Position numbers and translations under genes: made by a program. Of a DNA stretch of 52,282 nt, positions 901-36,875 are shown in pieces. The stretch comes from Desulfobacteraceae bacterium (GTDB lineage Bacteria > Desulfobacterota > Desulfobacteria > Desulfobacterales > Desulfosalsimonadaceae). The DNA is taken from assembly GCA_021162325.1 (NCBI GenBank), contig JAGGYV010000299.1:1-52282 (forward strand), in the 5' to 3' direction. The notes beneath the pieces were generated by a model. That model worked only from the letters and a program-made list of their open reading frames with translations, did no database searches and was not told where the DNA came from. Positions within the stretch are counted from its first letter, which is position 1, and each line of letters opens with the position of its first letter.

Positions 901-1500
901 TCAAGCTTGTGGCCAGCGCGGTGACAGGGCATGGTCGATATCCAAATGATCCAGCACCCTTGCCACAATTGAATTCACAAGATCATTAATCGTTTCAGGC
1001 CGGGTATAAAATCCCGGTGACGGGGGCATGATGGTGGCTCCGGCTTTTGCGGCTCGGGTCATGTTTTTTAAATGAACAAGACTCAACGGCGTCTCGCGCG
1101 GCAGCAGGATCAGGGGGCGTTTTTCTTTTAAGCAAACGTCTGCGGCACGATGGATCAAATTATCCGTGATACCGTTGGATATGGCAGCCAGGGTGTTCAT
1201 AGAGCAGGGGGCAATCACCATGCCGTTGTGCTGAAAAGACCCGCTGGCAACAGGGGCAAAAAAGTCAGATGAATCGACTTCAGTCAAAGTTGCCTGTGAA
1301 TGAAATATCTCATTGTTTTTCCTAAAATAACTATCAATGGGACCAGATAAATAATCCGTTTCATGGGCGGCAACCGCCCGGCCGGATTCAGACATCAGTA
1401 CAAACACCTCAACCGGGTATTTCATCAACGCAGAAACAAGATGAAAACCGTAAATACTGCCGGATGCGCCGGTGATTGCCACAATAAATTTTTTCTTCAT
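901..1500 (-). CDS. ubiX: Flavin prenyltransferase UbiX
   Basis: Taken from the 202-aa ORF. MKKKFIVAITGASGSIYG...MVIAPCSMNTLAAISNG is typical of UbiX/Pad1. The preferred start is the ATG at 1498-1500, which overlaps the upstream TGA stop (ATGA). Confidence 0.9.
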   Translation of the reverse strand: MKKKFIVAITGASGSIYGFHLVSALMKYPVEVFVLMSESGRAVAAHETDYLSGPIDSYFRKNNEIFHSQATLTEVDSSDFFAPVASGSFQHNGMVIAPCSMNTLAAISNGITDNLIHRAADVCLKEKRPLILLPRETPLSLVHLKNMTRAAKAGATIMPPSPGFYTRPETINDLVNSIVARVLDHLDIDHALSPRWPQA

Positions 1501-19854: not shown

Positions 19855-21915
19855 ATGGACGCATTATTGCAGAACATTCCACTAACGTGCACAGTTGTTG
19901 GGTTGGTGGGGATTCTTTACTCACTGCTCATCGCCGGAATGATTAGTAGGGCTCCGGCTGGAAACGAAAAAATGGTGGAAATCGCCACCGCCATTCAGGA
20001 AGGCGCCATTGCCTATCTGAATCGTCAGGCAAAAAGTATGGCAGCTGTCGGTATCGTAATTTTTGGTGTCATCATTTTCACGCTTGGCACCAAAGCCGCC
20101 ATCGGTTTTTTAGTGGGTGCTCTGGCATCTTTTATGGCCGGCTATATTGGCATGAGAGTTTCCGTTATTGCCAATGTCAGAACGACTGAGGCAGCCAGAG
20201 ACGGCATGGCAGCCGGCCTCAAAATGGCTTTTCGAGGTGGTTCCGTTACCGGTATGCTGGTTGCAGGCCTTGGCCTGACCTCATTGGCCGGTTTCTTTTC
20301 TTATCTAATTGCAACTGCCCCTGAAGGCGCCTCAATGATTGACAACGTGATTCCCCTGGTTGCCCTTGGTTTTGGCGGCAGCCTGATTTCCATCTTTGCC
20401 CGTCTGGGCGGTGGTATCTTTACCAAAGGCGCTGATGTCGGCGCTGACCTTGTCGGTAAAGTCGAAGCCGGTATTCCTGAAGATGATCCAAGAAATCCGG
20501 CAACAATCGCTGATAATGTGGGTGATAATGTAGGTGACTGTGCCGGTATGGCAGCTGACCTTTTTGAAACCTATGCCATTACACTGATTGCCTCAATGCT
20601 TCTGGGTACATTACTTTTCCCGGGAACTGACGTGGTTGTTATGTATCCTTTGGTTCTGGGTGCGGTTTCAATTGTTGCATCAATTATTGCCATGTTCTTT
20701 GTTCGTCTGGGTAAAAGCGAATATGTCATGGGCGCTCTGTACAAAGGCATGTTCGGTGCGGCAATTATTGCCGGTGTTGTATTCTATTTTGTAACCAACC
20801 ATATGTTATCTGCCGGCCTGACCACTGCAGCCGGTGTTGCAATTACCGCCATGGATATTTACTATGCCTCGCTGGTCGGTCTGGTGCTTACCTTATTACT
20901 CGTTGTTATTACTGAATTCTACACAGGTATTTACGCACCGGTTAAACATATTGCCGAAGCATCAACCACCGGTCATGGAACCAACATCATTGCCGGTCTC
21001 GCCGTCGGCCTCCAGTCAACCGCTCTTCCGGTTCTGTCTATCTGTGCAGCGATTTACATCTCACATGACCTTGCCGGACTTTACGGCCTTGCCATTGCTG
21101 CGGTTTCCATGCTGTCCATGACAGGTATGGTTATTGCTATTGACGCTTACGGTCCGATCACAGATAATGCCGGCGGTATTGCTGAAATGGCGGGACTCGA
21201 TGACAGTGTTCGTGCAGTCACCGATCCTCTGGATGCTGTTGGAAACACCACCAAAGCGGTTACCAAAGGGTATGCCATTGGTTCTGCTGCTCTGGCTGCA
21301 CTGGTTCTTTTTGCCGCGTATACCCAGGAATTTGCCCTGCACGGTGCGGGTGAAGCCATTGCATTTGACTTGAGTGATGTAAATGTCATTATCGGCCTTT
21401 TCATTGGTGGCCTGTTGCCGTTCCTGTTCGCATCCATGGCAATGAGCGCTGTTGGTAAAGCGGGCGCTGCGGTTGTTGATGAAGTTCGTCGTCAGTTCCG
21501 TGAAATCCCGGGAATTATGGAAGGTACGGCTAAACCGGATTACAAAGCATGCGTTGATATCGTCACCAAATTTGCATTAAGTCAAATGATGATTCCGGCC
21601 CTTCTTCCGGTAATCACACCGCTGCTGGTTGGTTTCTTCCTGGGCAAAGTTGCTCTGGGCGGTCTCCTCATCGGTAGTATCTTAACCGGTCTGTTCGTTG
21701 CTATTTCAATGACAACGGGTGGTGCTGCATGGGATAATGCAAAAAAATACATCGAAGACGGTTTCTTCGGCGGCAAGGGCAGTGATGCTCATAAAGCTGC
21801 GGTTACCGGTGATACAGTCGGCGATCCCTACAAAGATACAGCCGGACCGGCTATCAACCCGATGATTAAAATTCTTAATGTTGTTGCGTTGCTGATGGTT
21901 CCTTTTCTGATGTAA
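19855..21915 (+). CDS. hppA: Membrane-integral ion-translocating pyrophosphatase
   Basis: 686 aa and polytopic. Contains [29 protein letters not shown] and [14 protein letters not shown]. Confidence 0.95.
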
Positions 21916-23865: not shown

Positions 23866-24432
23866 TTATTTTATATCCAGCTTGCAATGTTTCGAATCCT
23901 TGTCAAACGTCAAGATAATCTCTTGATTCTCTTTTTTATCCTGATTCAACTTTTTATATTCCTTAAGCATCCGTTGCTTAAATGCCGATTTAGTCTCTTT
24001 TGCATCAGACTGTCCATATGCCCTGAGTTTTTCCTTTTGAATTTCCCAAAGCGTGTCCACGGAATATTGCGGCGTAGAACCCCCCATGCCGTTATTTTGA
24101 ACAGATTGGATATTTTCAGTGACAGGAACAGCATTTGGCTTTTCCTTTCGCCGCTGGGCCTCTGCATTATCCCAGAACTGTTTCCAGGCTCTTTTGCTGT
24201 AATGCACTTTCCATTGCAGGTTATCCAGGAGTGTCACCAAATAGTTGGTTGATATGCTGGGAGGCACTCGATATCCCTGTATTCTTTCAATAAGATCCAG
24301 GTGCCTGGGATGGGGCTTATTCTGACGATCCGCCAGATACGCCCTGATTTTACTATCCATCTCCTCCACCTGACGACTCAACACACCTATCTCCGCCACC
24401 ACCTGTGTGCGCCTTTGATCTTTTGAATTCAC
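23866..24432 (-). CDS. Hypothetical protein (charged, K/E/Q-rich, no TM segment)
   Basis: 188-aa ORF convergent with rluD. I recognise no family. Coding status is supported only by length and by the lower-complexity antisense ORF. Confidence 0.5.
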   Translation of the reverse strand: MNSKDQRRTQVVAEIGVLSRQVEEMDSKIRAYLADRQNKPHPRHLDLIERIQGYRVPPSISTNYLVTLLDNLQWKVHYSKRAWKQFWDNAEAQRRKEKPNAVPVTENIQSVQNNGMGGSTPQYSVDTLWEIQKEKLRAYGQSDAKETKSAFKQRMLKEYKKLNQDKKENQEIILTFDKDSKHCKLDIK

Positions 24433-24608
24433 GCTTTAACTCCCTAAATCATCCATCCCGACCCAATAATGATGGCTTCGTAAAACAAAAAAACTCCATA
24501 TAACTATATTTTAAAACAGCATACCTGAAAATTTAACAGCTATGACACCTCTTGTAAAGTTATCATAAAAAAAATATTATAGAATAATTCAATGCGGTAA
24601 AATAAAAA

Positions 24609-24649
24609 AGTCACGTCATTTCCTGCCCGGAAGTGATGTGACTTTTTTT
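24609..24649. terminator. Hairpin with flanking A/T runs, a possible bidirectional terminator
   Basis: agtcacgtcatttcc-tgccc-ggaagtgatgtgact forms a 15-bp stem, with two G-U pairs on the plus-strand RNA. It is flanked by A-rich sequence (ataaaaa) upstream and T7 downstream, about 45 nt past the cNMP-binding gene stop. Confidence 0.5.
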
Positions 24650-24691: not shown

Positions 24692-25189
24692 TTACCAGGA
24701 ATGCATGATATCGTGACCTTTCTGCTTAGCCAGTTCATCCTGAAACTGGTGAAAACGGAAGCCTAAAACTTTTACGAGATAGGACATGACCTGATATCCC
24801 ATCAATATATCTTTCTCAAATAAGGCCAGCATATCCGTTTTAGCAATCTTAATCACGCTACAGGAACGGGTCACACAATAAGCTGAAAGCATCAACCGAA
24901 ATGGCGGCACAAAGCACGACCAGCCCAATGTTCTTTTTTTATCATCTTCCGCCGCAAGAGATGAAATCGTATTTTCATCAGACGCCGAAATATTACCGGG
25001 AAGTTCAAACCGAAGATCGACTTTACCATCGGTAACAATCCACAAATGATCTGCTGAATCGCCTTCTTTAAAAAGTCTGTCGCCGCGGCTATAGTTGTCC
25101 TTAATGCAAAACTTCCGAAGAGACGCCAGTTGCTCGTTTGTTAATTCTTTAAATGCCTGAACATAATCTAATTCTTTTAACGTAATCAT
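24692..25189 (-). CDS. Stand-alone cyclic-nucleotide-binding domain protein
   Basis: YSRGDRLFKEGDSADHLWIVTDGKVDL fits the cNMP-binding beta-barrel. The start is set at MITLKEL (ATG 25187-25189), preceded by AGGAGA. Confidence 0.75.
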   Translation of the reverse strand: MITLKELDYVQAFKELTNEQLASLRKFCIKDNYSRGDRLFKEGDSADHLWIVTDGKVDLRFELPGNISASDENTISSLAAEDDKKRTLGWSCFVPPFRLMLSAYCVTRSCSVIKIAKTDMLALFEKDILMGYQVMSYLVKVLGFRFHQFQDELAKQKGHDIMHSW

Positions 25190-25332
25190 AATTTCTCCTA
25201 AAAAGCTTTTCATGGTGACGCATCACCACTGTTTGAGAAAATAACTTGTCAATCATTTCAAAAGATTATGGACGAGTTATTTGGAAGAGCCTTAAGGAAC
25301 ATTATAGTTACCAAAAGACGAATTAAAAAAAT

Positions 25333-27393
25333 CTATTGATCTGCATTATAACATAATCTGCAGCAATTCAAGCACCTGTTTGCCTCATATAACGCATCCG
25401 CTTCGGTAATCACCAAATCGACCTCACTCAGATTGTTGATACGCGCTTCAACCGGGAGTTCAGGCATCTCAGTTCGTTTTTTGGGAACAATGCCCTCGAC
25501 AGACTCAAATATAGTGCCGGGGATATGCTTATTCAACAAAAATTCCGGATGAGAGACCACCGGTTTGCCGTTCAAAAACAAATCGATTGACCGAGCCGCT
25601 TTTCGGCCGCCACCGATGGCTGTCACCACCAGGGATGGACCGGTCGCTGCATCACCGGCGGCAAAGATATAGGGTACATTGGTCTGACACGTAGCAGGCT
25701 CTACTTCAATTGTTTTCCACCGGGTGATTTCCAATTCATCTAACCGATCCCCCTTACCACGGAATGCCAGCAAAGGTGACTGGCCGATGGCGGTTATAAT
25801 CATATCCACATCAAGAACCGTCTCAGACCCTTCAACCGGAATAGGTCGCCTTCGTCCACTGGCATCAGGTTCTCCCAGTTCCATTTTCAAATACTCAAGG
25901 CCCGTTACCTGATTTTTCTCATCCCCGACAACCTTATTCGGAGCTGCCAAAAATACGAAATCGATCCCTTCATGCTCGGATGCGATAATTTCAACTTCAT
26001 TGGCCGGCATTTCTTTGCGTGTTCGCCGATAAACCAGATAGACCTTGTCTACCCCTTTTCGCAGCAGGGTCCGGCAACAGTCAATGGCTGTATTTCCACC
26101 GCCGATGACCGCTACCCGTTGACCGATACGGACATTTTCATTATTTCCAATTTTAGCCAAAAAATCAATCCCGGTAAAACATCCGGTCAGGTCTTCTCCG
26201 GGAATCCCCAGATTATAATCATTCCACGCACCGACACTAAAAAAGACGGCGTCAAAACCAGAAGCGATCAATGAACCAAAATCAAAATCAACCCCCAGGC
26301 GGACATTGGTATGAGCGTTTATACCTAAGTTTATAATCCCCTCTATTTCCCAATCCAGTACTTTTTTCGGTAAACGATATTCAGGAATGCCATATCGCAG
26401 CATGCCGCCCAACTTCGGCATGGCTTCAAATATTTCAGGACGATGTCCGATGCGTCTTAAAAAATAAGCACAACTCAGACCAGCCGGCCCACCACCAATG
26501 ACAGCCACTCGATTACCGGTATCCGGCGCACATTCGATGGGAAAGCGCTTGCCTGAATTCATTTCATAGTCGGCGACAAATCGTTTCAACTGGTTAATTG
26601 AAACCGGTTCATCTTCAACCCCGCGACGACAATAAGACTCGCAGGGATGCGGGCATACCCTTCCGCAAGCCAATAACAGGGGGTTTCGCTCCCTGATGGT
26701 ATTGACCGCTGCTTCGTATTCTCCATTACGGATATGCCCAATATATCGAGGGATATCGATTTCCGCAGGACAGGTTTGCGCACATGGTGCCAGAGCATCA
26801 TCATAGGCATTTAAATGCAGAAGACGCTGAGAAACAGTCCGCACTTCCAATATGGATTTAGGGCATGCCGCTTCACAGGCGCCGCAACCGACGCATTTTT
26901 CCCTGTCGACTTCCGGATACCCATCAGGTCCTAAATGAAGCGCATCAAAACCACAGGCACGAACACAATCGCCAAACCCCAAACAACCGATGGTACAATC
27001 CCGTTTCCCGCCATAAAATGACGTCACGGCACGACAGGTATTTAATCCGTTATAGATAAACCGATCCGTCGCCCGATTGCCGCCATTGCAATTATTATAT
27101 GATTTCAATGGTTCGGCCGTGCCGGCTTCAGACCCCATAATAATCGCAATTTCAGATATATTTTCCGTACCGATCAGGATACACGCATTGGCAGGGGCGT
27201 CTTCATTGACGATGGCTTCGGCCGCCGCTGAACAACCGGCAAAACCACACCCGCCGCAATTTGCGCCTGCTAAAAGATTTTCGACTCTGGCAATTCGCGG
27301 GTCTTCATACACATAAAATATTTTGGAAGCAAAACTTAAAATTAAGCCACAAACAGCACCAAGGCTGAAAGTAAATAGTATTGATTCAACCAC
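25333..27393 (-). CDS. rnfB: RnfB fused to a GltD/NfnB-like NAD(P)H-dependent FAD/FeS oxidoreductase
   Basis: 686 aa. Residues 1-190 have a TM anchor, CGGCGFAGC and ferredoxin-type CxxCxxCxxxCP motifs. Residues 195-686 carry GRVCPHPCESYC, VAVIGGGPAGL, VAVIGGGNTAIDC and AAGDAATGPSLVVTAIGGGRKAA. Confidence 0.85.
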   Translation of the reverse strand: MVESILFTFSLGAVCGLILSFASKIFYVYEDPRIARVENLLAGANCGGCGFAGCSAAAEAIVNEDAPANACILIGTENISEIAIIMGSEAGTAEPLKSYNNCNGGNRATDRFIYNGLNTCRAVTSFYGGKRDCTIGCLGFGDCVRACGFDALHLGPDGYPEVDREKCVGCGACEAACPKSILEVRTVSQRLLHLNAYDDALAPCAQTCPAEIDIPRYIGHIRNGEYEAAVNTIRERNPLLLACGRVCPHPCESYCRRGVEDEPVSINQLKRFVADYEMNSGKRFPIECAPDTGNRVAVIGGGPAGLSCAYFLRRIGHRPEIFEAMPKLGGMLRYGIPEYRLPKKVLDWEIEGIINLGINAHTNVRLGVDFDFGSLIASGFDAVFFSVGAWNDYNLGIPGEDLTGCFTGIDFLAKIGNNENVRIGQRVAVIGGGNTAIDCCRTLLRKGVDKVYLVYRRTRKEMPANEVEIIASEHEGIDFVFLAAPNKVVGDEKNQVTGLEYLKMELGEPDASGRRRPIPVEGSETVLDVDMIITAIGQSPLLAFRGKGDRLDELEITRWKTIEVEPATCQTNVPYIFAAGDAATGPSLVVTAIGGGRKAARSIDLFLNGKPVVSHPEFLLNKHIPGTIFESVEGIVPKKRTEMPELPVEARINNLSEVDLVITEADALYEANRCLNCCRLCYNADQ

Positions 27394-27504
27394 GACAATC
27401 CTCTTGATTTTTTCTATTCATATCAATTGACGTTGACTATCAATATCAACTACGCCTTCAATAAATTAAAAGCGTTGAATGTCACTAACGTTTAAAAAAA
27501 CGTT

Positions 27505-28077
27505 CTACACCATTCCCTGGAATGCAAAAAAAGCAAGGGAAATCATGCCGGCGGTAATCAGCGCAATGGATGTATCCTGAAGCGGTTTCGGAACCCGTGC
27601 AAGAAGAATCCGTTCACGGAGTCCTGCAAAAAGAATCAGTGCCAAGGCGAACCCGACCGCATAAAAGAACGAAGCAACCAACGCCTGAAGAAATGTAAAT
27701 TCCTTATCAATATTCAGTACGCATACTCCCATAACCGCACAGTTTGTTGTAATCAGCGGTAAAAAAATGCCGAGACCGGCATACAATGCGGGAATACTTT
27801 TTTTCAAAAACATTTCAACAAATTGAACCAAAGAGGCGATGACCACAATAAAGGCGATGGTCCTCAGATATACCAGACCAAATTTCACGAGAATAAAGGT
27901 ATAAATAACCCAGGTAATCGTTCCTGCCAGGACCAGCACAAAAATTACTGCCATTCCCATACCCACAGCGGTTTCCATTTTTTTCGAGGTTCCCAGAAAC
28001 GGACAATTTCCAAGAAACTGAGCAAGCAGAATATTATTAACAAAAATACATGCGATGATAAGTTCAAAATAACCCAT
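27505..28077 (-). CDS. rnfA: Rnf complex subunit A
   Basis: 190 aa, polytopic, typical RnfA/NqrE sequence (NCAVMGV). Confidence 0.9.
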   Translation of the reverse strand: MGYFELIIACIFVNNILLAQFLGNCPFLGTSKKMETAVGMGMAVIFVLVLAGTITWVIYTFILVKFGLVYLRTIAFIVVIASLVQFVEMFLKKSIPALYAGLGIFLPLITTNCAVMGVCVLNIDKEFTFLQALVASFFYAVGFALALILFAGLRERILLARVPKPLQDTSIALITAGMISLAFFAFQGMV

Positions 28078-28089
28078 TATGTTCTCCTG

Positions 28090-28701
28090 TTAATCCCCTA
28101 TCGCATTTATGAAACAGAGCATCAGACCAAGACAGATAAACGCACCCGGCGCCTGAACCATAAACGAAAACGGCTGAAAAGACGGAAATGCCGACGATAA
28201 ATTGTATGAAAGGTCGCCCCAAACCGTTACCGACCCATTCCCCAGCAATTCTCTGACAGCTCCAAGGGCGCCGAGTGCTAACGTATAGCCGATCCCGATT
28301 CCCAAACCGTCCGCCATGGAATATAATACTTTATTTTTATATGCAAATGCTTCCGCCCGCCCCAAAACAATACAGTTGACAACAATCAACGGGATAAATA
28401 CCCCCAGCTTCAGGTATAATGGATACGTATACGCCTGCATCAACAGCTCCACAATCGTCACAAATGATGCAATAATGATAATAAAACAAGCGATTCTCAC
28501 TTTTTGCGGAATGATGCTTCTTAACAGAGAAACCAGGAAATTTGACCCAAACAGAACAAATGTTGTTGCAATCCCCATTCCAAGTCCGTTTTCCATTGAG
28601 GTGGTAACCCCAAGCACAGGACATAAACCCAGCACCAGTCGGAACGGCGGGAGTTCTTCCCACAATCCTTTTGTAAATTCCTGAACTAACGTCTTAGGCA
28701 T
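28090..28701 (-). CDS. rnfE: Rnf complex subunit E
   Basis: 203 aa, polytopic, RnfE/NqrD-like (LGLCPVLGVTT, VVNCIVLGRAEAFA). Confidence 0.9.
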   Translation of the reverse strand: MPKTLVQEFTKGLWEELPPFRLVLGLCPVLGVTTSMENGLGMGIATTFVLFGSNFLVSLLRSIIPQKVRIACFIIIIASFVTIVELLMQAYTYPLYLKLGVFIPLIVVNCIVLGRAEAFAYKNKVLYSMADGLGIGIGYTLALGALGAVRELLGNGSVTVWGDLSYNLSSAFPSFQPFSFMVQAPGAFICLGLMLCFINAIGD

Positions 28702-28710
28702 ATTGATCTC

Positions 28711-29322
28711 CTATTTGCCGAACTGCTGAATTTCTTGTTGTAACTGCGGTTTGATTTTCTGATAAGATTTCAATGCCTTATCAACAGCAACGCATACTGC
28801 ACGGGATGTAATCGTCGCACCACTGATGGCGTTAATCTGTCCGCCGTCCTTGGTTACGGAGACAGATTCCTTAACAGACAGCCCTTTAAACTGAGACACC
28901 AGATCGGGTTTATCTTTGGCGTTTGCACCCAGACCAGGGGTCTCCGTATGAACGGTAACCGCTACACCGACCAGTTTATCTTCATTCACATTAACACCGA
29001 CCATCACGCCAATATCGCCACCAAATCCTTTACCGAATTCCTCAAATGCAATGGTCGTCGCTTTGCCGTCAAACACACCAACAAAAAAACTCGTTTCAGC
29101 GTCACCATCTGCAATTTTAAAGCGGTCTTCAATCGGATTATTGGTCGATCCTTCCAGGATGGACATAATTGCGGGGCCTTTGACAAATGTCAACTGCTGC
29201 GCCTCAATCTGACTGGCCGTCCCTTTATTTACAGCAGCCAGTACGCCGCCGGCAACAGAGCTTAAAACCGTTAAAACAACAACCATTTTTACCATATCAT
29301 TCATGTTAGACACCCTTTCCAA
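28711..29322 (-). CDS. rnfG: Rnf complex subunit G (FMN-binding)
   Basis: 203 aa. N-terminal anchor and the covalent-FMN motif SGATITSRAV. Confidence 0.85.
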   Translation of the reverse strand: MERVSNMNDMVKMVVVLTVLSSVAGGVLAAVNKGTASQIEAQQLTFVKGPAIMSILEGSTNNPIEDRFKIADGDAETSFFVGVFDGKATTIAFEEFGKGFGGDIGVMVGVNVNEDKLVGVAVTVHTETPGLGANAKDKPDLVSQFKGLSVKESVSVTKDGGQINAISGATITSRAVCVAVDKALKSYQKIKPQLQQEIQQFGK

Positions 29323-30265
29323 GTGCTTTGGGTCTAATTTTATCTACAATCGGATTGACCAGGTTTATAATCAGAATCGCATACAGCACCCCGTCAATAT
29401 GGGTACCAATGTTTCTGATCAATACCGTCAGCGCCCCTCCGAGTAGCCCATATATCAACATGGGTATAAAATTTACCGGGGAAGAAGAATCTTCGGTAGC
29501 AAGAAAAAATGCACCGATCAGGGTATATCCGGTTAATAAATGAAAACCGGGACCGGCATAGGCTTCAGGATTTAAAATATTGAAACACAGGGCTGACACA
29601 AATATCCCAACAAGAAAAGAAAATGAAATTTCCCATCTAACAAACCCCCTGAGAATTAAATAGACACCGCCGGCAATCAAACCAATTCCAAAGGTTGATC
29701 CAATGCCGCCGATTTGTTTCCCGAAAAGCAGGTCCATTAAAGCGAAAGGGTCTACCGCCGACGCACCGAAGGTCTTTGACAAAACCAATGGATAGACCGC
29801 TTTAAAATCAAATTGATAATTCAGCAGCGCGGCATTAAAATCAAATAAATCCGCCCAGGACAACATCAAAATCGTCATTGCCAGAACTGCCGGATTAAAA
29901 GGATTGGCACCGATGCCGCCAAAAATTTCCTTACCAATGACCACCGCAAAAAAGGTTCCGGTGATCACTGCCCACCATGGCATAGTTGCCGGAAGCATCA
30001 TCGCAAACATCATGCCGATCAACGCGGCATTGCCATCTCCCACGGATATGGGACGCCGGGAAATAAAATTGATCAGCAACTCCCAGAGTATTGCCGAGGC
30101 AATAGAAAGAGTAACCACCCCGACAGCAGCCATGCCATACTGATAACAGCCGGGGATAACTGCCACAAGGCTGGCCAGAAGAATGTTACGGCTTTTTGTA
30201 GAAATACTGCTCCCGTTATGCCAGAACGGGGCATGCGAAACAGTTAGTTTTAAAGTGCTATGCAT
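29306..30265 (-). CDS. rnfD: Rnf complex subunit D
   Basis: 319 aa, polytopic, RnfD/NqrB-like (GANPFNPAV, FLATEDSSSP). Confidence 0.9.
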   Translation of the reverse strand: MHSTLKLTVSHAPFWHNGSSISTKSRNILLASLVAVIPGCYQYGMAAVGVVTLSIASAILWELLINFISRRPISVGDGNAALIGMMFAMMLPATMPWWAVITGTFFAVVIGKEIFGGIGANPFNPAVLAMTILMLSWADLFDFNAALLNYQFDFKAVYPLVLSKTFGASAVDPFALMDLLFGKQIGGIGSTFGIGLIAGGVYLILRGFVRWEISFSFLVGIFVSALCFNILNPEAYAGPGFHLLTGYTLIGAFFLATEDSSSPVNFIPMLIYGLLGGALTVLIRNIGTHIDGVLYAILIINLVNPIVDKIRPKALGKGV

Positions 30266-31541
30266 TACTTTCCTCCGCTGCTTTCATACTTTCCAGAGTA
30301 TGCTTCGCCAGCTTGATATGCTGAAAAACAGGTATCCTTGATTCACAAACATAACTACAGAATCCGCATTCAATGCAGGAAAACAGATCATGTTGATCTG
30401 CGGCTTCCTCATATTGTCCGGCTTCGAGAAATCGAATCAATTGATTAACCTGTATATTTGCTGGACATACCCGAACACATTCACCGCAATTGATGCAGGC
30501 GATGTCAGAACCTTCCGTAATCTGACGTTTATCCTGAATAATGATTGTATCAGTGTCCGGCATGACAGGAGTGTCTGTTGAAAAAACAGAAACCCCTTTC
30601 ATTGGACCACCAAAGACCACCCGATCGCCATCATTTAATGTTTCATTGAATTCATTTAAAATATCCTGTAACGGGGTCCCGATAGGAACGGAAACCAGCC
30701 GTTTATTTCCGTCTTTTGAAACAAACGTAACCATCTTTTCCAAAAAAAACTTACCGGTAGTATATGCGGCACCAATGGCACAAACCGCTTCTGAACTAAA
30801 AAATGCGATCCCGGATTTTGACTTTGCGTCAACATCTTCAGAAGCAAGCATATGTTGCATAATCAATTCCGGATGGGCAGACGGATATTCCGAATCCACC
30901 GTTTTAATAATTGCACCCGATGACCCGGCCACCTGCTCAAGTTGTTGGGGAACAATCAGAATCGCATGGGAAATTCCGGTAATTTTACAAAGCAACTCAA
31001 TACCTGTTTTAATAGCGATAATATTGTTTTTTACAAAATATTGATTGGTGATGCCGAGTAAATCATCATCCGCCCCAAGTACCACAATAGCCTTGACCGG
31101 TTTTTCGGAATCAAAAAACACATTAAAATCCGGTTTTCCAGGAAGGCCGGCCAGAAAATCCCTTGCATTTTCAAGGGAAGGTGCCTGACAGGCACTTTTG
31201 AAACTTTCATCGCGGGATTGAGAGGATTCACCATCCACATCAATGGTCAACGATGTGGATTTTTTCCCGAGAATACCGACAAATGGAGAAATTTTTGATA
31301 TTTGTCCGGATTTGCTGGAAAGGAGATAATCAGCGGAACCATCCGACAGGGTGACTTTTTGACCGCTTTTGACGGGATCGCCGATTTTAAACAAAGCATT
31401 GCCGGCATTTTCATCGGGCTGATCAATATAAAGCATGATCTGTTTCCCGGGTTTAATGCGGACAGGTTCTGCCTGTGCTTCATCAATAATTTCATATTGT
31501 AGTTTCGGTTTTACGAGTCCGAAGAATGATCTTTTAATCAT
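30258..31541 (-). CDS. rnfC: RnfC-like subunit with apparently degenerate FMN/NADH-binding motifs
   Basis: 427 aa. The RnfC N-terminal barrel region, GGPMKG and two C-terminal 4Fe-4S motifs (CINCGECVRVCP, CIECGFCSYVCE) are present. The expected GLGGAGFP and ECEPY positions read AGLPGKPDF and GADDDLLG. Confidence 0.8.
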   Translation of the reverse strand: MIKRSFFGLVKPKLQYEIIDEAQAEPVRIKPGKQIMLYIDQPDENAGNALFKIGDPVKSGQKVTLSDGSADYLLSSKSGQISKISPFVGILGKKSTSLTIDVDGESSQSRDESFKSACQAPSLENARDFLAGLPGKPDFNVFFDSEKPVKAIVVLGADDDLLGITNQYFVKNNIIAIKTGIELLCKITGISHAILIVPQQLEQVAGSSGAIIKTVDSEYPSAHPELIMQHMLASEDVDAKSKSGIAFFSSEAVCAIGAAYTTGKFFLEKMVTFVSKDGNKRLVSVPIGTPLQDILNEFNETLNDGDRVVFGGPMKGVSVFSTDTPVMPDTDTIIIQDKRQITEGSDIACINCGECVRVCPANIQVNQLIRFLEAGQYEEAADQHDLFSCIECGFCSYVCESRIPVFQHIKLAKHTLESMKAAEESNA

Positions 31542-31632
31542 GGATCAACCTATAACTGCTTGACTTATAATTAATTCATTTCCTCAAAAACTTGAGAATC
31601 TTCCGTCTTTTTGACTATAAAATGAGCGCTTT

Positions 31633-32274
31633 TTAAAAACCATGACATTTTTTACAGTCTGCGTCCGTCCTGCCCGGACGGACCCCGAAGTCTTCATGAC
31701 AGCCGATACACTGATCATGAAATGCTTCCGTTCTTTTTCGTGGCGAATGACAGCTTGCGCAGTCATCCTTTCCGGGCACGACACCGGAATCTTCATGACA
31801 GGCGATACACTGTTTATGAAATGCCTGTGTACGTCCCGGCATAAAATCATCTTCAACACCGGGTTCATGGCAATCACTACACAATTGCGGTTCACCGCCA
31901 TCTTCTTCATCATAATCGTGATGGCAGTCATTACATGAAAGCCCCATATCCATACTGTGCATACCATGATCAAATGTACCGTTATCTCCAAAGACCGGGA
32001 TAGATTCACTATCGGACTGATGGCAACTACCGCATGAACCCGGGACATCGGACCGGCTGTCGTCATGGGCATGATGACAGTCAATACATTTTTTCCCATA
32101 CGCATCACTATGGGTCTGATGGTCAAACAAAACATTTCCGCCAACTGTCTTAAACATCAGCCGAACGGGTGGCTCCGGCGACTTTGCAGGCACGGAACTG
32201 TAACAAAACACACCAACAACCAAACAGACAATCGCAAGGGCATAAACAAATTTAAGTTCATTCTTTGAAGACAT
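31633..32274 (-). CDS. Membrane-anchored octahaem c-type cytochrome
   Basis: 213 aa. N-terminal hydrophobic anchor and eight CxxCH motifs: CIDCH, CGSCH, CNDCH, CSDCH, CIACH, CASCH, CIGCH, CKKCH. Confidence 0.85.
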   Translation of the reverse strand: MSSKNELKFVYALAIVCLVVGVFCYSSVPAKSPEPPVRLMFKTVGGNVLFDHQTHSDAYGKKCIDCHHAHDDSRSDVPGSCGSCHQSDSESIPVFGDNGTFDHGMHSMDMGLSCNDCHHDYDEEDGGEPQLCSDCHEPGVEDDFMPGRTQAFHKQCIACHEDSGVVPGKDDCASCHSPRKRTEAFHDQCIGCHEDFGVRPGRTDADCKKCHGF

Positions 32275-32534
32275 CTATTGAGATTCCTTTCAATTGGGCC
32301 TGATACTTATACACAACCGATCACACGCTTCTATGAGAAGGCATCAACGATTAATCTTTCTAAGCCGCCCTTTGCCTTTCATTCATTACGGACACAAAAA
32401 AGACTAACATTTTATACAAATTTAAATTCAAAAAAAAAAATTATTATTATTTTACATAATTTTTGTCAAGATATTTATATCACATTGTTAATGACCCCAA
32501 CAGGTATACTTTTGATATATTTTATTAACTGCCC

Positions 32535-33782
32535 TTAATCTGCTTTTCGCCTTAAAAATGTCGGTATATCGTAATCAATATAAGGTTCTCTTTTAGCAGC
32601 CTTTTCATTTTTAAATTTATTTATTTTCTTTACTTTGTGCGCTCCCTGATCAATCTTTCGTCCCTGGGCTTCTTCTTTTTTGCGAATATATGCCGGACGG
32701 ACCAGTTCCGCGTCAAAATTTTTTAATTCTTCCGGGGTCGGATTCCGAACAACACCCCTTACCGCCTCACTGGGCCTGGAAACATCCCTGAAGGATGATC
32801 GCGGTCTCTGCATTTGGCCCTTTCCGTCTCCAATGCCGGTGGCAATAACCGTTACCCGAAGCTCATCACCAAGACTTTCATCAACCGCTGTACCCCAAAT
32901 AATTTCCACGTCATCATCACCGATTTCATTATAAATTCTTTCAGACGCCTCGATGGTTTCCTCCATGGTCAACTCTGAATTACAGGTGATGTTCATCAGC
33001 ACACCCCGCGCGCCCACAATAGAGTTGTCTTCAAGAAGCGGGTGAGAAATGGCTCTTTCCGCTGCTTCAATGGCCCGATTTTCACCACTTGCAACACCAA
33101 TTCCCATAATCGCCATACCCGCCTTGGACATGGTCGCCTTAACATCCGCAAAATCGAGATTAATCAGACCTGGACGTAAAATAAGATCGGTTATGCCTTT
33201 TACCGAATGATTCAATATTTCATCCGCCCGTCTAAACATTTCGATCAATGTCGACTTTCTGGATGCCAATCCCCTTAATCGATCGTTGGGTATTGTAATT
33301 ACGGTATCGGCCATTTCCTTTAACCGGTTGATTCCTTCTTCGGCCTGCTTACTTCTTTTTTTGGCTTCAAAGGCAAACGGTTTTGTGACCACTGCCACAG
33401 TTAACGCCCCAAGCTCTTTACAGATTTCCGCGATAACCGGTGCTGCGCCAGTTCCGGTACCACCGCCTAAGCCGGCAGCAATAAATACCATGTGACTGTC
33501 TGCCAGTGCTTCCCTTAAAACATCGGCTGACTCCAGTGCCGCATCCCTTCCGATATTCGGATCTGCTCCCGCCCCCAGGCCTTCAGTCAATGTCTCACCC
33601 AGCTGAATCTTCGTTTCCGCTTTTGCATAGGCCAGCGCCTGGCCATCCGTGTTGGCGACAATGAACTGAACCCCCTGAAGATTTGAATCAATCATGTTAT
33701 TTACTGCATTACACCCTCCTCCGCCGACACCGATAACCTTAATTTTTGCCGAACTTTCTGCCTCTACATAAGTAAAGTCCAT
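32535..33782 (-). CDS. ftsZ: Cell division GTPase FtsZ
   Basis: 415 aa. Contains GVGGGGCNAVN and GGGTGTGAAPVIA, with a conserved C-terminal DIPTFLRRK peptide. Confidence 0.97.
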   Translation of the reverse strand: MDFTYVEAESSAKIKVIGVGGGGCNAVNNMIDSNLQGVQFIVANTDGQALAYAKAETKIQLGETLTEGLGAGADPNIGRDAALESADVLREALADSHMVFIAAGLGGGTGTGAAPVIAEICKELGALTVAVVTKPFAFEAKKRSKQAEEGINRLKEMADTVITIPNDRLRGLASRKSTLIEMFRRADEILNHSVKGITDLILRPGLINLDFADVKATMSKAGMAIMGIGVASGENRAIEAAERAISHPLLEDNSIVGARGVLMNITCNSELTMEETIEASERIYNEIGDDDVEIIWGTAVDESLGDELRVTVIATGIGDGKGQMQRPRSSFRDVSRPSEAVRGVVRNPTPEELKNFDAELVRPAYIRKKEEAQGRKIDQGAHKVKKINKFKNEKAAKREPYIDYDIPTFLRRKAD

Positions 33783-33849
33783 ACTGCCGCCTCCTTGTAT
33801 GTGTGTTTTTGGCTGTTCTCCTTAAGCCTTCAATATACTATAACGCTGA

Positions 33850-35076
33850 CTAAATTATTTCCTTAAACCAGGTTTTCATCCGGATCATTATTCTGTTAAA
33901 AATATTGGCGTCCCGTATTCTGAATTTCTTTTTGGACTGATGTTTAGCGCCATACAGCACCAGGCCGACGCCAGTGGCATACATAGGACTGTTCACAACA
34001 TCCACCAGCCCACTAATCCCCTGAGGGCTTCCCAATCGTACCGGCAGCTCAAACGTGGATTCCGCAATTTCTGCGATACCATCCAGCAGAGAAGCGCCGC
34101 CGGTGAGGACAATTCCGGAAGATACATAATCCTTCATCCCGGCCCGATAGATCTCCCTTTTCATTAACGTAAACACCTCTTCTACCCGGGGTTCTAAAAT
34201 TTCCGCCAGGATCTGACGGGGGAGTTGCCGGGCGCCGCGACCACTGATATCAGATATTTCGATGGTTTCATCATTTTTGACCTTATCCGCCACGCAGGTA
34301 CCATATTTTAATTTGATTTTTTCAGCTTCAGCCATTGGCGTCCGAAGCCCGACGGAAATATCATTGGTCATGTTATTACCGCCAAGGGATAAAACGAATG
34401 TATGCTTTATGTTATTTCCGGCAAAAATCGCCAGATCAGTGGTCCCTCCACCAATGTCAATAATCCCCGTGCCAATCTCTTTTTCCTGTGCGCTCATCAC
34501 CGCTTCACTGGACGCGATCGGTTCCAGAATAATATCGCAAATATCCAGACCCGCCTTGTGCCCGCATTTGATAATATTCTGGGCAGATGTCACCGCCCCC
34601 GTCACGATATGGATTCTTGCTTCAAGCCTGACACCGGCCATTCCAACCGGGTTATGAATGCCCGCTTCGCCATCCACAATAAACTCCTGAGGAAGCACAT
34701 GAATAACCTCCCGATCCATGGGTATAGCGACCGCCCGTGCCGCCTCAATTACCCGGTCCACATCTGCCTGGATAATTTCATCACCCTTGATCGCAATAAT
34801 GCCGTTACTGTTAAAACCGGTAATATGCCCCCCGGCGATACCGGCATAAACGGCTGAAATCTCGCACCCGGCCATCATTTCGGCTTCCCTGACAGCCTTG
34901 TTGATTGACTCAACCGTTGACTCAATATTTACCACAACCCCCTTGCGCAGACCCACCGATGGATGCGTACCGACTCCGACAATATTGACATTATTATCCG
35001 ATAATTCCGCGACAACGGCACATATCTTTGTTGTACCGATATCCAGTCCCACAATAATTTCTTCATGGTTTTTCAC
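33850..35076 (-). CDS. ftsA: Cell division protein FtsA
   Basis: Actin-like GLDIGTTKI and DIGGGTTD motifs. The start is set at GTG 35074-35076, six nt after AAGGAGG. The ORF-track start at 35130 overlaps ftsQ. Confidence 0.9.
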   Translation of the reverse strand: MKNHEEIIVGLDIGTTKICAVVAELSDNNVNIVGVGTHPSVGLRKGVVVNIESTVESINKAVREAEMMAGCEISAVYAGIAGGHITGFNSNGIIAIKGDEIIQADVDRVIEAARAVAIPMDREVIHVLPQEFIVDGEAGIHNPVGMAGVRLEARIHIVTGAVTSAQNIIKCGHKAGLDICDIILEPIASSEAVMSAQEKEIGTGIIDIGGGTTDLAIFAGNNIKHTFVLSLGGNNMTNDISVGLRTPMAEAEKIKLKYGTCVADKVKNDETIEISDISGRGARQLPRQILAEILEPRVEEVFTLMKREIYRAGMKDYVSSGIVLTGGASLLDGIAEIAESTFELPVRLGSPQGISGLVDVVNSPMYATGVGLVLYGAKHQSKKKFRIRDANIFNRIMIRMKTWFKEII

Positions 35077-35077
35077 G

Positions 35078-35938
35078 TTAAACCTCCTTTTTATCCTTAT
35101 CGGACAATTTCTCATTTCCGGGTCTTGCAACGATATGGTCCGGATTTCTCAGATCTATCTCTTTGATGAACGAAATTTCTTCATTCTGCTCAACATAAGA
35201 TAAAATTTTTTTCAACCGGCTGTATTTCTTCCGATAGTCGCCGTATCCGAGCTGAATTATCCGTACCGGGCCATCTGTTTCAAGCGTTAATCCAATTTCC
35301 CGATCAACATTAATCTTTTTTATAATCGTATTCGGCAAAATCGCGTCTGATGATCTCCCGATATTCAATATTTCAAGCACTGAAACAAATACCGGCGAAC
35401 CCGGTGTTTCCAGTGTTTTCCAGTCGGAATAGTCAATTCCGGACATTACCGGCATACCGGTAATGTCGGATGCCTGCGCTTCCTTAAAAATGACGCCGTC
35501 TTTGTTGATAAGAAACTGTTTGCCGAAATCAAGAACGGCCAAACCTTCCTGTTCCCTGATGCGGATAAAAATGCTCCCCGGAAATGTCCTGCGAATATCT
35601 GCTTCAGCAATCCAGGGATGGGCCAGCAATCTTTTTCTAACTATTTTTAAATTCAACGATACGAGATTGACCCCTTCTTCTATATCCGCTATTTTAAGAA
35701 TCCGGTCACGGGTCAGCCGCTGGCCCCCTTCCACGGTGATTGTTTCAGCTTTGAAATAATCACACTGGGTGAACACATCATGGATAAATATAAACACCAG
35801 GCTCATGCCGATGACCATAAGCGCCAGAAATGTGCTTTTAAAAAGAATGCGTATGCTCTGTCTAATTGTCATGGCACGATTTTTAACAGGCTCTTTCTTT
35901 TTATACCGATTTTTTCTTGGTTGATTAATCCCCAACAA
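35078..35938 (-). CDS. ftsQ: Cell division protein FtsQ
   Basis: 286 aa. Single TM segment followed by a POTRA-like domain. Positioned between murB and ftsA. Confidence 0.85.
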   Translation of the reverse strand: MLGINQPRKNRYKKKEPVKNRAMTIRQSIRILFKSTFLALMVIGMSLVFIFIHDVFTQCDYFKAETITVEGGQRLTRDRILKIADIEEGVNLVSLNLKIVRKRLLAHPWIAEADIRRTFPGSIFIRIREQEGLAVLDFGKQFLINKDGVIFKEAQASDITGMPVMSGIDYSDWKTLETPGSPVFVSVLEILNIGRSSDAILPNTIIKKINVDREIGLTLETDGPVRIIQLGYGDYRKKYSRLKKILSYVEQNEEISFIKEIDLRNPDHIVARPGNEKLSDKDKKEV

Positions 35939-36875
35939 TTTTAACTTCCGGCTCCAGCATGATATTGAATTTTTTTAAAACCGCTTCCTGAATAAGATTC
36001 ATTAAGCAAAGAATATCTTCGGCAGATGCCCTGCCCTGGTTGACAATAAAATTTGCATGTTTTTCGGAAACCGCTGCATCCCCCACCCGTAAGTCTTTTC
36101 CTCGGGCCAGATCAATCAGCCTTCCTGCTGATTCCCGGCTATCCGGATTCCTAAAAAAACAGCCGGCTGAAGCAAACCCCGCAGGCTGTGTTTTTTTCCG
36201 TACGTTTAACATGTCATCCGCTTCTGCCTTTAAGCGCTCCGAGCGCTGAAGTGAGAGGGAAAACCGCCCCTCCAGAATCACACAGGAGGCTAAGTCCATG
36301 CTTTTTTCTTCGACAAACGAAAGGGACCGGTATGAAAACGTTAACTCACGTTTATCCACAAATTCGATGCAACCGGCCGGATTAATGATTCGGATGCTGT
36401 CCAGGACATTGCTCATATCACCTTTCCAGGCACCGGCATTCATCCGGAGAGCACCGCCGACCGTCCCAGGAATCCCCAATGCAAAATTCAACCCGGCAAG
36501 GCCTTGCTTAATTGCAAATCGGCAAAGCGTACTTAAACCGGCACCGGCCATCGCAGAAAGAATTGTTGAACCATGCTGAGAAATCGTTGCCAGATCCTTT
36601 GCCAGGCAAATCACGACCCCGCGAATCCCCTTGTCTTTAACCAGCAGATTGGTTCCCCCGCCGACGATAAAAAACGGCAGATCATTTTCTTTCAGCCACT
36701 GGACCAGCCAGGTTAATTCTCTTTCTTCAGTCACTGTTACAAAAGCATCTGCCGGCCCACCGACACGAAGGGTGGTATGGGCAGTCATCGGTTCATCAAA
36801 TCGAACCCGATCGAAAAATCGATTTTTTAATTGTTGTTTAAACTTAGATTGTAGTGCCATAATACCCGCCATCAA
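35925..36875 (-). CDS. murB: UDP-N-acetylenolpyruvoylglucosamine reductase
   Basis: 316 aa. Contains TTLRVGGPAD, GGGTNLL and AGCFFRNP. Confidence 0.9.
   Translation of the reverse strand: MMAGIMALQSKFKQQLKNRFFDRVRFDEPMTAHTTLRVGGPADAFVTVTEERELTWLVQWLKENDLPFFIVGGGTNLLVKDKGIRGVVICLAKDLATISQHGSTILSAMAGAGLSTLCRFAIKQGLAGLNFALGIPGTVGGALRMNAGAWKGDMSNVLDSIRIINPAGCIEFVDKRELTFSYRSLSFVEEKSMDLASCVILEGRFSLSLQRSERLKAEADDMLNVRKKTQPAGFASAGCFFRNPDSRESAGRLIDLARGKDLRVGDAAVSEKHANFIVNQGRASAEDILCLMNLIQEAVLKKFNIMLEPEVKIVGD

Follow-up and report, generated by a model that had tools for sequence, protein, structure and literature searches.

The window analysed here, a stretch of 52,282 nucleotides from a Desulfobacteraceae bacterium (contig JAGGYV010000299.1 of assembly GCA_021162325.1), carries an Rnf operon in which RnfB is extended by a redox module and RnfC has lost the motifs of its canonical nucleotide site. 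An open reading frame (ORF) check recovered all seven co-directional genes claimed in an initial annotation of this DNA exactly where they had been placed, and every motif quoted there was found. From its first gene to its last, the operon consists of:

31633-32274, minus strand: cytochrome gene, first in the operon, 213 amino acids (aa)
30258-31541, minus strand: rnfC, 427 aa
29306-30265, minus strand: rnfD
28711-29322, minus strand: rnfG
28090-28701, minus strand: rnfE
27505-28077, minus strand: rnfA
25333-27393, minus strand: rnfB, 686 aa, GTG start

The genes rnfC and rnfD overlap by 8 nt and rnfD and rnfG by 17 nt; the remaining gaps measure 9-111 nt.

The operon had been described as atypical, yet within its lineage it is normal: it belongs, as an ordinary representative, to the published Rnf2 or "D. 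toluolica Tol2-type" Rnf class of Desulfobacterales sulfate reducers. Doerries et al. 2016 (PMC5109826), citing Woehlbrand 2013, described for the Tol2-type Rnf NAD-binding sites on an RnfB of about 700 aa, together with a cytochrome in the cluster, and detected the subunits by proteomics. The name Rnf2 was given to it by the same laboratory (Rabus) in Sci Adv 2025 (PMC11887813, with supplement), where the system was assigned to the Desulfobacteraceae core genome, was abundant and constitutive in six strains, and was also noted in Desulfarculus baarsii and Dv. salexigens. Both papers define the class by its RnfB of about 700 aa, in which an N-terminus resembling small RnfB is joined to a NAD(P)-binding pyridine-nucleotide oxidoreductase domain (PMC5109826, PMC11887813). 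The window shares with it the order of a cytochrome c gene followed by rnfCDGEAB, the long RnfB with its nucleotide module, an RnfC without NADH-ubiquinone-oxidoreductase (flavin mononucleotide, FMN) and SLBB domains, the c3 family of the cytochrome encoded in the cluster, and the occurrence in Desulfobacterales. Orthology was tested on clusters of cultured Desulfobacteraceae, and D. toluolica and D. multivorans were compared by their published description. The window differs in its eight-haem cytochrome, where Desulfobacter, Desulfobacula and Desulfobacterium have four or five haems and D. multivorans a 15-kDa protein, and in a gene for a cyclic nucleotide monophosphate (cNMP)-binding protein after rnfB. 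The published descriptions call the other subunits "very similar" to the canonical ones; that the window RnfD has no FMN-attachment threonine is a point absent from them. Hence, the architecture and the inference about the nucleotide site are already published, and what we add are modest refinements: a predicted NfnA-type, Lys-ligated NADPH module, the apparent loss of the FMN threonine in RnfD, and a haem number that seems to be clade-specific. The terms Desulfo, sulfate, fusion and fused do not occur in the text of a 2025 review on Rnf/Nqr.

We surveyed contigs of one genome per species and obtained 479 matching stretches, of which 80 loci were kept. These align across RnfB residues 1-685/686 with 65-94% identity, and the order cytochrome-rnfC-D-G-E-A-B was found in every kept locus with enough upstream DNA. 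The closest relatives of the window RnfB come from metagenome-assembled genomes (MAGs) of Desulfococcaceae and Desulfobacteraceae (91-94%). RnfB proteins with 65-68% identity occur in full synteny in Desulfocicer vacuolatum, Desulfobacter latus, D. curvatus, D. vibrioformis and Desulfonema limicola. The best 120 RnfB relatives measure 652-702 aa, share at least 67% identity with the query over 94-100% of its length, and have the same domain set. Wider sampling, using a profile of the non-canonical RnfD clade followed by inspection of the genomic context, yielded ten further long-RnfB operons. The same operon is present in Pseudodesulfovibrio indicus (locus L082, CP014206; ten haems, RnfB of 700 aa), in an Aminicenantes MAG (L083), in an Eisenbacteria contig and in several metagenome contigs. 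The reading that the 686-aa ORF results from an assembly error or frameshift joining rnfB to a gltD-like gene, or that the cluster is a decaying set of pseudogenes, has next to no likelihood, and nothing was found in its favour. Independent assemblies, including those of complete genomes and of cultured strains (Desulfocicer vacuolatum, three species of Desulfobacter and Pseudodesulfovibrio indicus), repeatedly contain one ORF of 686-702 aa, 25 cysteines are invariant across 79 RnfB orthologues, and all subunits have been seen by proteomics in cultured relatives (PMC5109826, PMC11887813). Recurrence, synteny and cysteine conservation thus refute the artefact, and rnfB is a genuine single gene, as the initial annotation had it.

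Some of the more distant loci carry additional genes. In P. indicus (L082, 12304-14978) genes for a cytochrome c3 and a periplasmic NiFe(Se) hydrogenase lie directly after rnfB. Downstream of rnfB in the Aminicenantes MAG (L083, 11966-14966) and in a metagenome contig (L091, 10863-12987) we found NuoE-like genes and a NuoF-GltD fusion of about 1020 aa, accompanied in L083 by a NuoG/Fdh-like gene; these sets correspond to genes of a Bfu-type bifurcating enzyme. In the metagenome loci L089 (7597-10829) and L090 (6937-9066) a gene for a MazE-antitoxin-like protein splits the operon between rnfG and rnfE, and in L089 short-chain dehydrogenase, NUDIX and cupin genes are located between rnfE and rnfA.

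RnfB had been described as an ordinary N-terminal RnfB followed by a long redox module, and Pfam, NCBIfam and structure-sequence matches bear this out. The two parts of the protein are:

26824-27393, minus strand: rnfB aa 1-190, with a transmembrane helix, a PF04060 [4Fe-4S] domain, two extra cysteines and a 2x[4Fe-4S] ferredoxin domain
25333-26811, minus strand: rnfB aa about 195-686, permuted NfnL-like module

Residues 1-190 match PF04060 (FeS), Fer4, TIGR01944 (73.5 bits, cut-off 68.7) and the structure 7zc6_B (E 4e-49). All cysteines of this core are invariant in the 79 orthologues, namely C46, C49, C54 and C71 of the PF04060 domain, the extra C102 and C120, and C133-C177 of the ferredoxin domain. 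The extension from about residue 195 matches Fer4_20 and Pyr_redox_2 in Pfam, and the following structures:

9bov_A, C. saccharolyticus NfnA: 454.5 bits
9n5u_A, T. sibiricus NfnA: 429.6 bits
8oh5_C, S. ovata StnC: 387.7 bits
4ylf_B, NfnB: 336.4 bits
5jca_L, NfnB: 306.9 bits
GltD: 228 bits

The C-terminal tail of RnfB (aa 637-681, ending ...EANRCLNCCRLC) aligns with the N-terminus of NfnB (aa 637-676 with NfnB residues 3-42). This makes the module a circular permutation, an arrangement also seen in NfnA and StnC. We assigned its cofactors by analogy to C. saccharolyticus NfnA and propose a proximal [4Fe-4S] cluster bound by C208, C247, C251 and K270 and a distal one bound by C204, C255, C674 and C677. 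The fold for flavin adenine dinucleotide (FAD) is represented by VAVIGGGPAGL and the NADPH fold by VAVIGGGNTAIDC together with YRRTRKEMPA, a motif common to NADPH-dependent relatives. In C. saccharolyticus NfnA the cluster next to the FAD (A7) is ligated by C108, C147, C151 and K170, and within the NfnABC complex this FAD is not the bifurcation site but a terminal NADPH entry, which passes electrons one at a time into the Fe-S chain (PMC11829005). NfnB of T. maritima and P. furiosus has Glu at the position of the window K270. Across the 79 orthologues K270 is at least 95% conserved, and YRRTRKEMPA, both GGG folds and the 25 cysteines are conserved as well. The assignment of the extension to the GltD/NfnB type therefore stands in part: Fer4_20 and two Rossmann folds, for FAD and NADPH, are present, but the module is permuted and NfnA/StnC-like, with a Lys ligand. 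Taken together, RnfB has gained what is predicted to be a complete FAD/NAD(P)H module with two [4Fe-4S] clusters. Its nucleotide is likely NADP(H), for which it likely serves as a simple, non-bifurcating entry or exit.

Beyond the five expected [4Fe-4S] clusters, RnfB contains six further invariant or nearly invariant cysteines (C102, C120, C243, C439, C678 and C681). Half of the "fifth cluster" of C. tetanomorphum RnfB has its counterpart in C102 and C120, and these two could join C243 and C681 in ligating a cluster that bridges the RnfB core and the NfnL-like module.

While RnfB has acquired a nucleotide module, RnfC lacks its own. Pfam recognizes only the RnfC_N and Fer4 families in the window RnfC, with no match to Complex1_51K or SLBB, and the score against TIGR01945 (rnfC) is 176.8 bits, under the cut-off of 245.95. 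NCBIfam models of NqrA match aa 46-323 at 88 bits. Two regions of the protein are of particular relevance:

31038-31154, minus strand: RnfC aa 130-168, former glycine loop LAGLPGKPDFNVF and former ECEPY motif VLGADDDLLGITNQY
30345-30497, minus strand: RnfC aa 349-399, two four-Cys motifs for two [4Fe-4S] clusters

We aligned the window RnfC and 64 orthologues with four references, the structurally solved RnfCs of A. woodii, C. tetanomorphum and A. vinelandii and E. coli RsxC. The window strings AGLPGKPDFNVFF, VVLGADDDLLGITN and EYPSAH come to lie opposite GLGGATFPTHVK, NGAECEPYLT and KYPQGAEK of the solved RnfCs. Four blocks that are invariant in the references are replaced in the window and the 64 orthologues:

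Block 1: G..G.GGA.FP..VKL in the references, L..lPG.--P.f in the window and orthologues, with a two-residue deletion
Block 2: N..ECEPY.T.D in the references, G.D.DLl.T.Q in the window and orthologues
Block 3: E...DNK in the references, vP in the window and orthologues
Block 4: YP.G..KQL in the references, YP.a.P in the window and orthologues

The claimed loss of the GLGGAGFP-, AECEPY- and KYPSGG-type motifs thus holds for the whole family. The proposed survey for co-occurrence gave a uniform result, since the canonical motifs are missing in 74/74 long-RnfB operons (the 64 orthologues and the ten further operons). To call this RnfC degenerate is only half correct. The canonical motifs are gone, but the motifs that replace them are themselves conserved (55-61% within the family vs. 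a domain mean of 45%), which indicates constraint and not decay. In the former FMN pocket the alignment revealed no conserved Cys or His that would hint at a new cofactor. The N-terminal barrel and both C-terminal 4Fe-4S motifs are intact, as had been noted: RnfC_N is matched, and C349, C352, C355, C359, C389, C392, C395 and C399 are invariant (53 sequences). An AlphaFold2 model (pLDDT, the predicted local distance difference test, 72.8) is closest to RnfC chains, with template modelling (TM) scores of 0.65-0.69 (9eri_C, 0.69), followed by NqrA with about 0.56. RnfC relatives at about 50% identity with precomputed Complex1_51K matches were considered as intermediates that keep the site, but they have neither GGAxFP nor ECEPY. 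Both motifs are also missing in L086, L088, L089 and L090, where Complex1_51K matches are unmarked. Complex1_51K matches in RnfCs without the motifs indicate that these Pfam matches reflect the fold only. From these alignments we conclude that the FMN/NAD(H) site of canonical RnfC is gone in the Rnf2-type protein. The idea that the pyridine-nucleotide site has moved from RnfC to RnfB is supported as far as sequence analysis reaches.

RnfD, RnfG, RnfE and RnfA are ordinary by family score. RnfD matches PF03116 with 272 bits and TIGR01946 with 206.3 bits, slightly under the cut-off of 207.05, RnfG belongs to the DVU2794 subfamily (NF045876, 244.2 bits, cut-off 205), RnfE matches TIGR01948 (255.9 bits, cut-off 213.4) and RnfA TIGR01943 (245.6 bits, cut-off 229.3). 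The initial annotation had counted two departures from canonical Rnf, in RnfB and RnfC, and had overlooked a third in RnfD. In A. woodii RnfD the threonine T156 carries a covalent FMN (PMC11889175), and C. tetanomorphum RnfD and E. coli RsxD have Thr at this position as well. The window protein has a tyrosine there, Y158 (codon 29792-29794). Among 68 orthologues the column holds Y in 38, A in 25, F in 4 and D in 1, and S or T in 0/68. When 50%-identity representatives were searched exhaustively for RnfD, the nearest 25 or so clusters had no [ST]xATP, which is present in the remoter canonical RnfDs; over the whole set, T occupies the column in 80/116 sequences. The redox sites of RnfG, RnfE and RnfA are conserved. 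RnfG has its FMN-attachment threonine (T170, in SGAT; 70/71 orthologues), and the ligands of the RnfA/E iron-sulfur centre are invariant, C27 and C110 of RnfE in 72/72 and C25 and C113 of RnfA in 74/74 orthologues. Judged by these residues, the initial half of the Rnf route for electrons is fully intact, from the RnfB clusters through the RnfA/E Cys4 centre to the FMN-threonine of RnfG.

The first gene of the operon encodes a cytochrome with exactly eight CxxCH motifs, a Cytochrom_CIII match (PF02085, 58.9 bits) and an N-terminal hydrophobic segment, either a signal peptide or a membrane anchor, in agreement with its earlier description as an anchored octahaem protein. Its two halves are weakly alike (E 1e-4), which suggests that it was built of tandem c3-like modules. 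A cytochrome gene lies 5' of rnfC in 64/64 GTDB loci with enough flank, and also in the Pseudodesulfovibrio, Aminicenantes and Eisenbacteria loci and in L089-L091. The haem number varies by clade. It is eight in the clade of the window (RnfB at least 72% identical), four or five in Desulfobacter, Desulfobacula and Desulfobacterium, ten in Pseudodesulfovibrio and Eisenbacteria, eight in the Aminicenantes MAG and 4-12 across metagenome contigs, with twelve in L091. In L085 a 125-aa tetrahaem ORF directly upstream of rnfC (1111-1486, plus strand) was missed by the gene caller and found by a six-frame scan. Among long-RnfB loci, Thr at the FMN position of RnfD occurs only in L084, L085 and L088, that is in 1 of about 71 cytochrome-positive vs. 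2 of 3 cytochrome-negative operons, which are phylogenetically non-independent. A strict rule linking the cytochrome gene to threonine loss fails, since L085 has both the tetrahaem ORF and Thr. The two features appear to be associated as a tendency, not as a rule.

We compared the operon with characterized systems. Canonical Rnf (A. woodii 9eri, C. tetanomorphum 7zc6, A. vinelandii 8ahx) shares with it the six subunits, the RnfA/E Cys4 centre, the FMN-threonine of RnfG, the membrane anchor, PF04060 cluster and ferredoxin domain of RnfB, and the RnfC fold with two [4Fe-4S] clusters. The window differs by an RnfC without FMN/NADH motifs and under the TIGR01945 cut-off, an RnfD without the FMN threonine, the additional FAD/NADPH module on RnfB and the additional cytochrome c gene. 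The layout is also shared with Na+-NQR (Na+-translocating NADH:quinone oxidoreductase), in which a NAD(P)H-oxidising FAD/Fe-S subunit at the RnfB/NqrF position feeds the RnfAE/NqrDE centre and the subunit at the RnfC/NqrA position is without flavin (PMC9588780, PMC11889175). However, the flavoprotein of the window is an NfnL-type fusion to RnfB and not the NqrF protein resembling ferredoxin-NADP+ reductase, RnfC keeps both [4Fe-4S] clusters that were lost in NqrA, NqrB keeps the covalent FMN whereas the window RnfD has no threonine for it, and the RnfC fold is nearer to RnfC (TM 0.69) than to NqrA (TM 0.56). No NqrF homologue is encoded in the operon and all Nqr equivalog scores are far under their cut-offs. 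The resemblance to Na+-NQR is a parallel solution in layout only and not membership.

The module on RnfB shares with NfnA (9bov, 9n5u) and StnC (8oh5) the permuted order, an "RCL.C" helix segment after the Rossmann domains, the proximal cluster with three Cys and one Lys, and a YRRTxxEMPA motif. In those proteins the domain is followed by an Fdh/NuoG-like domain, within a soluble bifurcating NfnABC complex, whereas the window module sits on a membrane-anchored RnfB and ends with its C-terminal Cys motif, the protein stopping at aa 686. Neither an Fdh/NuoG-like domain nor genes for NuoF/NuoE-like NfnB/C partners were found in the window operon. In NfnB of NfnSL and in GltD the segment with the first Cys pair is N-terminal, and in bifurcating NfnSL the fourth ligand of the proximal cluster is Glu, in contrast to the C-terminal position and K270 of the window RnfB. 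The Rnf of Methanosarcina acetivorans also has an operon-encoded multihaem cytochrome c, MmcA, which is thought to draw electrons at the outer face of the membrane (PMC12174285). By its description it is set apart as an archaeal ferredoxin:methanophenazine system with a cytochrome of another family and no reported NfnL fusion on RnfB.

The surroundings of the operon contain the following features:

32440-32469, minus strand: promoter-like site, TTGACA, 18-nt spacer, AATAAT, 11/12 consensus matches (pattern match only)
24692-25213, minus strand: stand-alone cNMP-binding gene 3' of rnfB (PF00027, 29.4 bits)
24604-24648: 20-bp hairpin with A/T runs on both sides, terminator-like for both strands (pattern match only)

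The promoter-like site lies within the 260-nt gap separating ftsZ from the cytochrome gene, and the hairpin is the likely 3' end of the transcription unit. The gene for a cNMP-binding protein after rnfB, noted before, is confirmed by the Pfam match. Since the terminator-like hairpin comes after this gene and not after rnfB, it is probably co-transcribed with the rnf operon. It lies outside the conserved core of the Rnf2 system, with a homologue after rnfB in 16/80 GTDB loci, and the distant L086, a locus without cytochrome, has a 150-aa cNMP_binding gene at 12027-12479. A regulatory link of the protein to Rnf2 is possible. Between the cNMP-binding gene and a pseudouridine synthase gene we noted a 188-aa ORF (23866-24432, minus strand) of doubtful gene status, for which no Pfam match at E<=1e-5 was obtained. 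A membrane-bound H+/Na+-pyrophosphatase (19855-21915, plus strand; PF03030, 860 bits), which by coincidence also has 686 aa, is encoded 3.4 kb from the rnf operon in a region of unusual AT skew (-0.19). Such pyrophosphatases are ion-motive enzymes typical of Desulfobacteraceae energy metabolism. Directly upstream of the rnf operon lies a division and cell-wall gene cluster with ftsZ, ftsA, ftsQ and murB (32535-36875, minus strand; identified from translations), and co-directional ORFs continue beyond these genes up to 49883. These cell-division and cell-wall neighbours indicate a core chromosomal location and not a mobile element. A second, canonical rnf cluster, sought for comparison as in D. 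multivorans, was present neither in the window nor in the 80 loci.

Based on these data we favour, tentatively and with slightly less than even confidence, that Rnf2 is an oxidoreductase that translocates ions while passing electrons from NADPH(/ferredoxin) to a periplasmic cytochrome c, with a further partner at RnfC. NADPH would give electrons to the FAD and Fe-S chain of RnfB, and ferredoxin would probably also donate, at the RnfB ferredoxin domain. The electrons would cross the membrane via the RnfA/E iron-sulfur centre, arrive at the FMN of RnfG on the periplasmic side and be handed to the octahaem cytochrome, from which they could pass through the periplasmic cytochrome c pool to Qrc and menaquinone and on to Qmo/Dsr and sulfate reduction. 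The model for A. woodii couples the export of Na+ to the RnfA/E cluster being reduced and oxidised again while electrons move from RnfB to RnfG, and RnfD only conducts (PMC11889175). If this coupling applies, NADPH oxidation at RnfB with exit through RnfG to the cytochrome would pump outward, and flow in the other direction would draw on the ion gradient so that H2 or formate in the periplasm could reduce NADP+. The cytochrome c3 and periplasmic NiFe hydrogenase genes that adjoin the P. indicus operon were counted in favour of a cytochrome-linked function. An exit through the associated cytochrome via Qrc to menaquinone has been proposed before, with oxidation of ferredoxin, and perhaps also of NADH, as the source of electrons (PMC11887813). 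Conservation of the two RnfC clusters makes a second cytoplasmic partner at RnfC probable; by thermodynamics, it would need a higher potential than NADPH. A scheme with ferredoxin at RnfC and NADP+ at RnfB, which would send electrons backwards through RnfA/E, was rejected on thermodynamic and mechanistic grounds, since a reaction that is exergonic would use up the ion gradient, or else the gradient would have to be built by one that is endergonic. A more specific proposal, possible but doubtful in our view, is a "half-loop" pump in which electrons of NADPH (and ferredoxin) make a single membrane crossing (RnfB, RnfA/E, RnfG) and exit to the multihaem cytochrome, that is a Na+/H+-translocating NADPH:cytochrome c oxidoreductase. 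Here the FMN of RnfD would have been lost since the cytochrome took over the periplasmic face, and RnfC, without FMN yet still with its clusters, would have been re-purposed for a new cytoplasmic partner.

Several observations weigh against the favoured reading. NADPH and low-potential c3-type haems differ little in redox potential, and it is homology that points to NADPH over NADH. The Fe-S domain is the best-conserved portion of RnfC (69%), and in RnfD the riboflavin-ligand positions are retained, with N124 in place and Glu replacing Asp at the position of A. woodii D249 (N in 55/68, D to E in 68/68 orthologues). Both suggest that the return branch is probably still used. The long-RnfB operons L084, L086 and L088 have no cytochrome gene anywhere in the locus, so that the cytochrome is apparently not obligatory for the design, and together with the invariant RnfC clusters they argue that an acceptor at the RnfC/RnfD end, cytoplasmic or a quinone, is used as well. 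In D. alaskensis G20, which may not have Rnf2, dhcA mutants showed no fitness defect where rnf mutants had one (PMC4215793). Our literature search found no enzymology, structure or genetics for an Rnf2-type complex.

Much of this evidence would fit an alternative in which electrons return to the cytoplasmic side. Here NADPH at RnfB would feed RnfA/E, RnfG, the RnfD riboflavin and the RnfC clusters in turn, and finally an acceptor of higher potential than NADPH, for which the candidates are menaquinone, bound where RnfD meets RnfC (as in Na+-NQR), or a protein of the cytoplasm such as rubredoxin, flavodoxin or a carrier of the thiol/disulfide type; the cytochrome would be a side branch or a relay replacing the RnfD FMN. 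Besides the eight invariant cysteines in the best-conserved part of RnfC, the kept riboflavin-ligand positions and the G20 dhcA mutant without phenotype (PMC4215793), this reading gains from the retained RnfC fold with its constrained replacement motifs, from the match of NqrA models to RnfC at 88 bits, and from the existence of cytochrome-less operons, two of three with Thr at the FMN position of RnfD. However, without the RnfD FMN the hop from the RnfG FMN to riboflavin would exceed that in any solved Rnf or Nqr, the operon encodes no candidate acceptor, the former FMN pocket of RnfC offers no conserved Cys or His for a new cofactor, and the cytochrome gene is retained in nearly all operons across several phyla. 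We regard the return of electrons to RnfC as a possibility of some weight, though on balance an unlikely one.

Both remaining readings appear improbable to us. An Nfn-like bifurcating site on RnfB, as suggested in the initial annotation, would split the electrons of NADPH at the RnfB FAD, the low-potential ones going through the RnfB clusters to ferredoxin and the high-potential ones towards RnfC or the cytochrome. The homology of the module to the large subunit of NfnSL (4ylf_B 336 bits, 5jca_L 307 bits), the tight association of RnfB and RnfC in solved Rnf structures (PMC9588780) and the spare invariant RnfB cysteines C102, C120, C243, C681 and C439 speak for it. Yet the module is nearer to NfnA/StnC, with which it shares the permutation, and has the conserved Lys ligand K270 instead of the NfnSL Glu; because the FAD of NfnA and StnC is terminal and non-bifurcating, bifurcation is disfavoured, and the operon has no gene for an NfnS-like [2Fe-2S]/FAD partner. 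A shade less probable still is an ordinary ferredoxin:NAD+ Rnf, in which a divergent pocket of RnfC would bind FMN/NAD(H), with the RnfB extension as no more than an accessory NADPH input. The RnfC-like fold, the precomputed Complex1_51K matches in some family members and public annotations that read RnfC, "ferredoxin:NAD+ oxidoreductase", are in line with this. It is contradicted by the replacement of every block invariant in the four canonical RnfCs, including the two-residue deletion in the glycine loop, by the lack of the motifs also in members with Complex1_51K matches, and by the RnfD without the FMN threonine that would be needed to feed RnfC in the canonical way.

Three residue-level points, the Lys-ligated NfnL module of NADPH type and probably non-bifurcating chemistry on RnfB, the RnfD without FMN threonine, and the Nqr-like wiring, sharpen the predictions for this complex. 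The complex should use NADPH and not NADH, RnfG and not RnfD should give the sole fluorescent flavoprotein band, RnfC should contain no flavin, and activity should depend on the cytochrome. Desulfobacteraceae account for a large share of carbon oxidation in marine sediments and are hydrogenase-poor complete oxidisers. With Rnf2 in their core genome and abundantly made, what is at stake is the route from cytoplasmic NAD(P)H and ferredoxin to the membrane-bound sulfate-reduction machinery. If the half-loop proposal is true, Rnf2 would represent an independent, Nqr-like re-wiring of the Rnf scaffold, and in completely oxidising sulfate reducers it would supply the link that is missing from the cytoplasmic pools of NAD(P)H and ferredoxin to the periplasmic route of cytochrome, Qrc and menaquinone.

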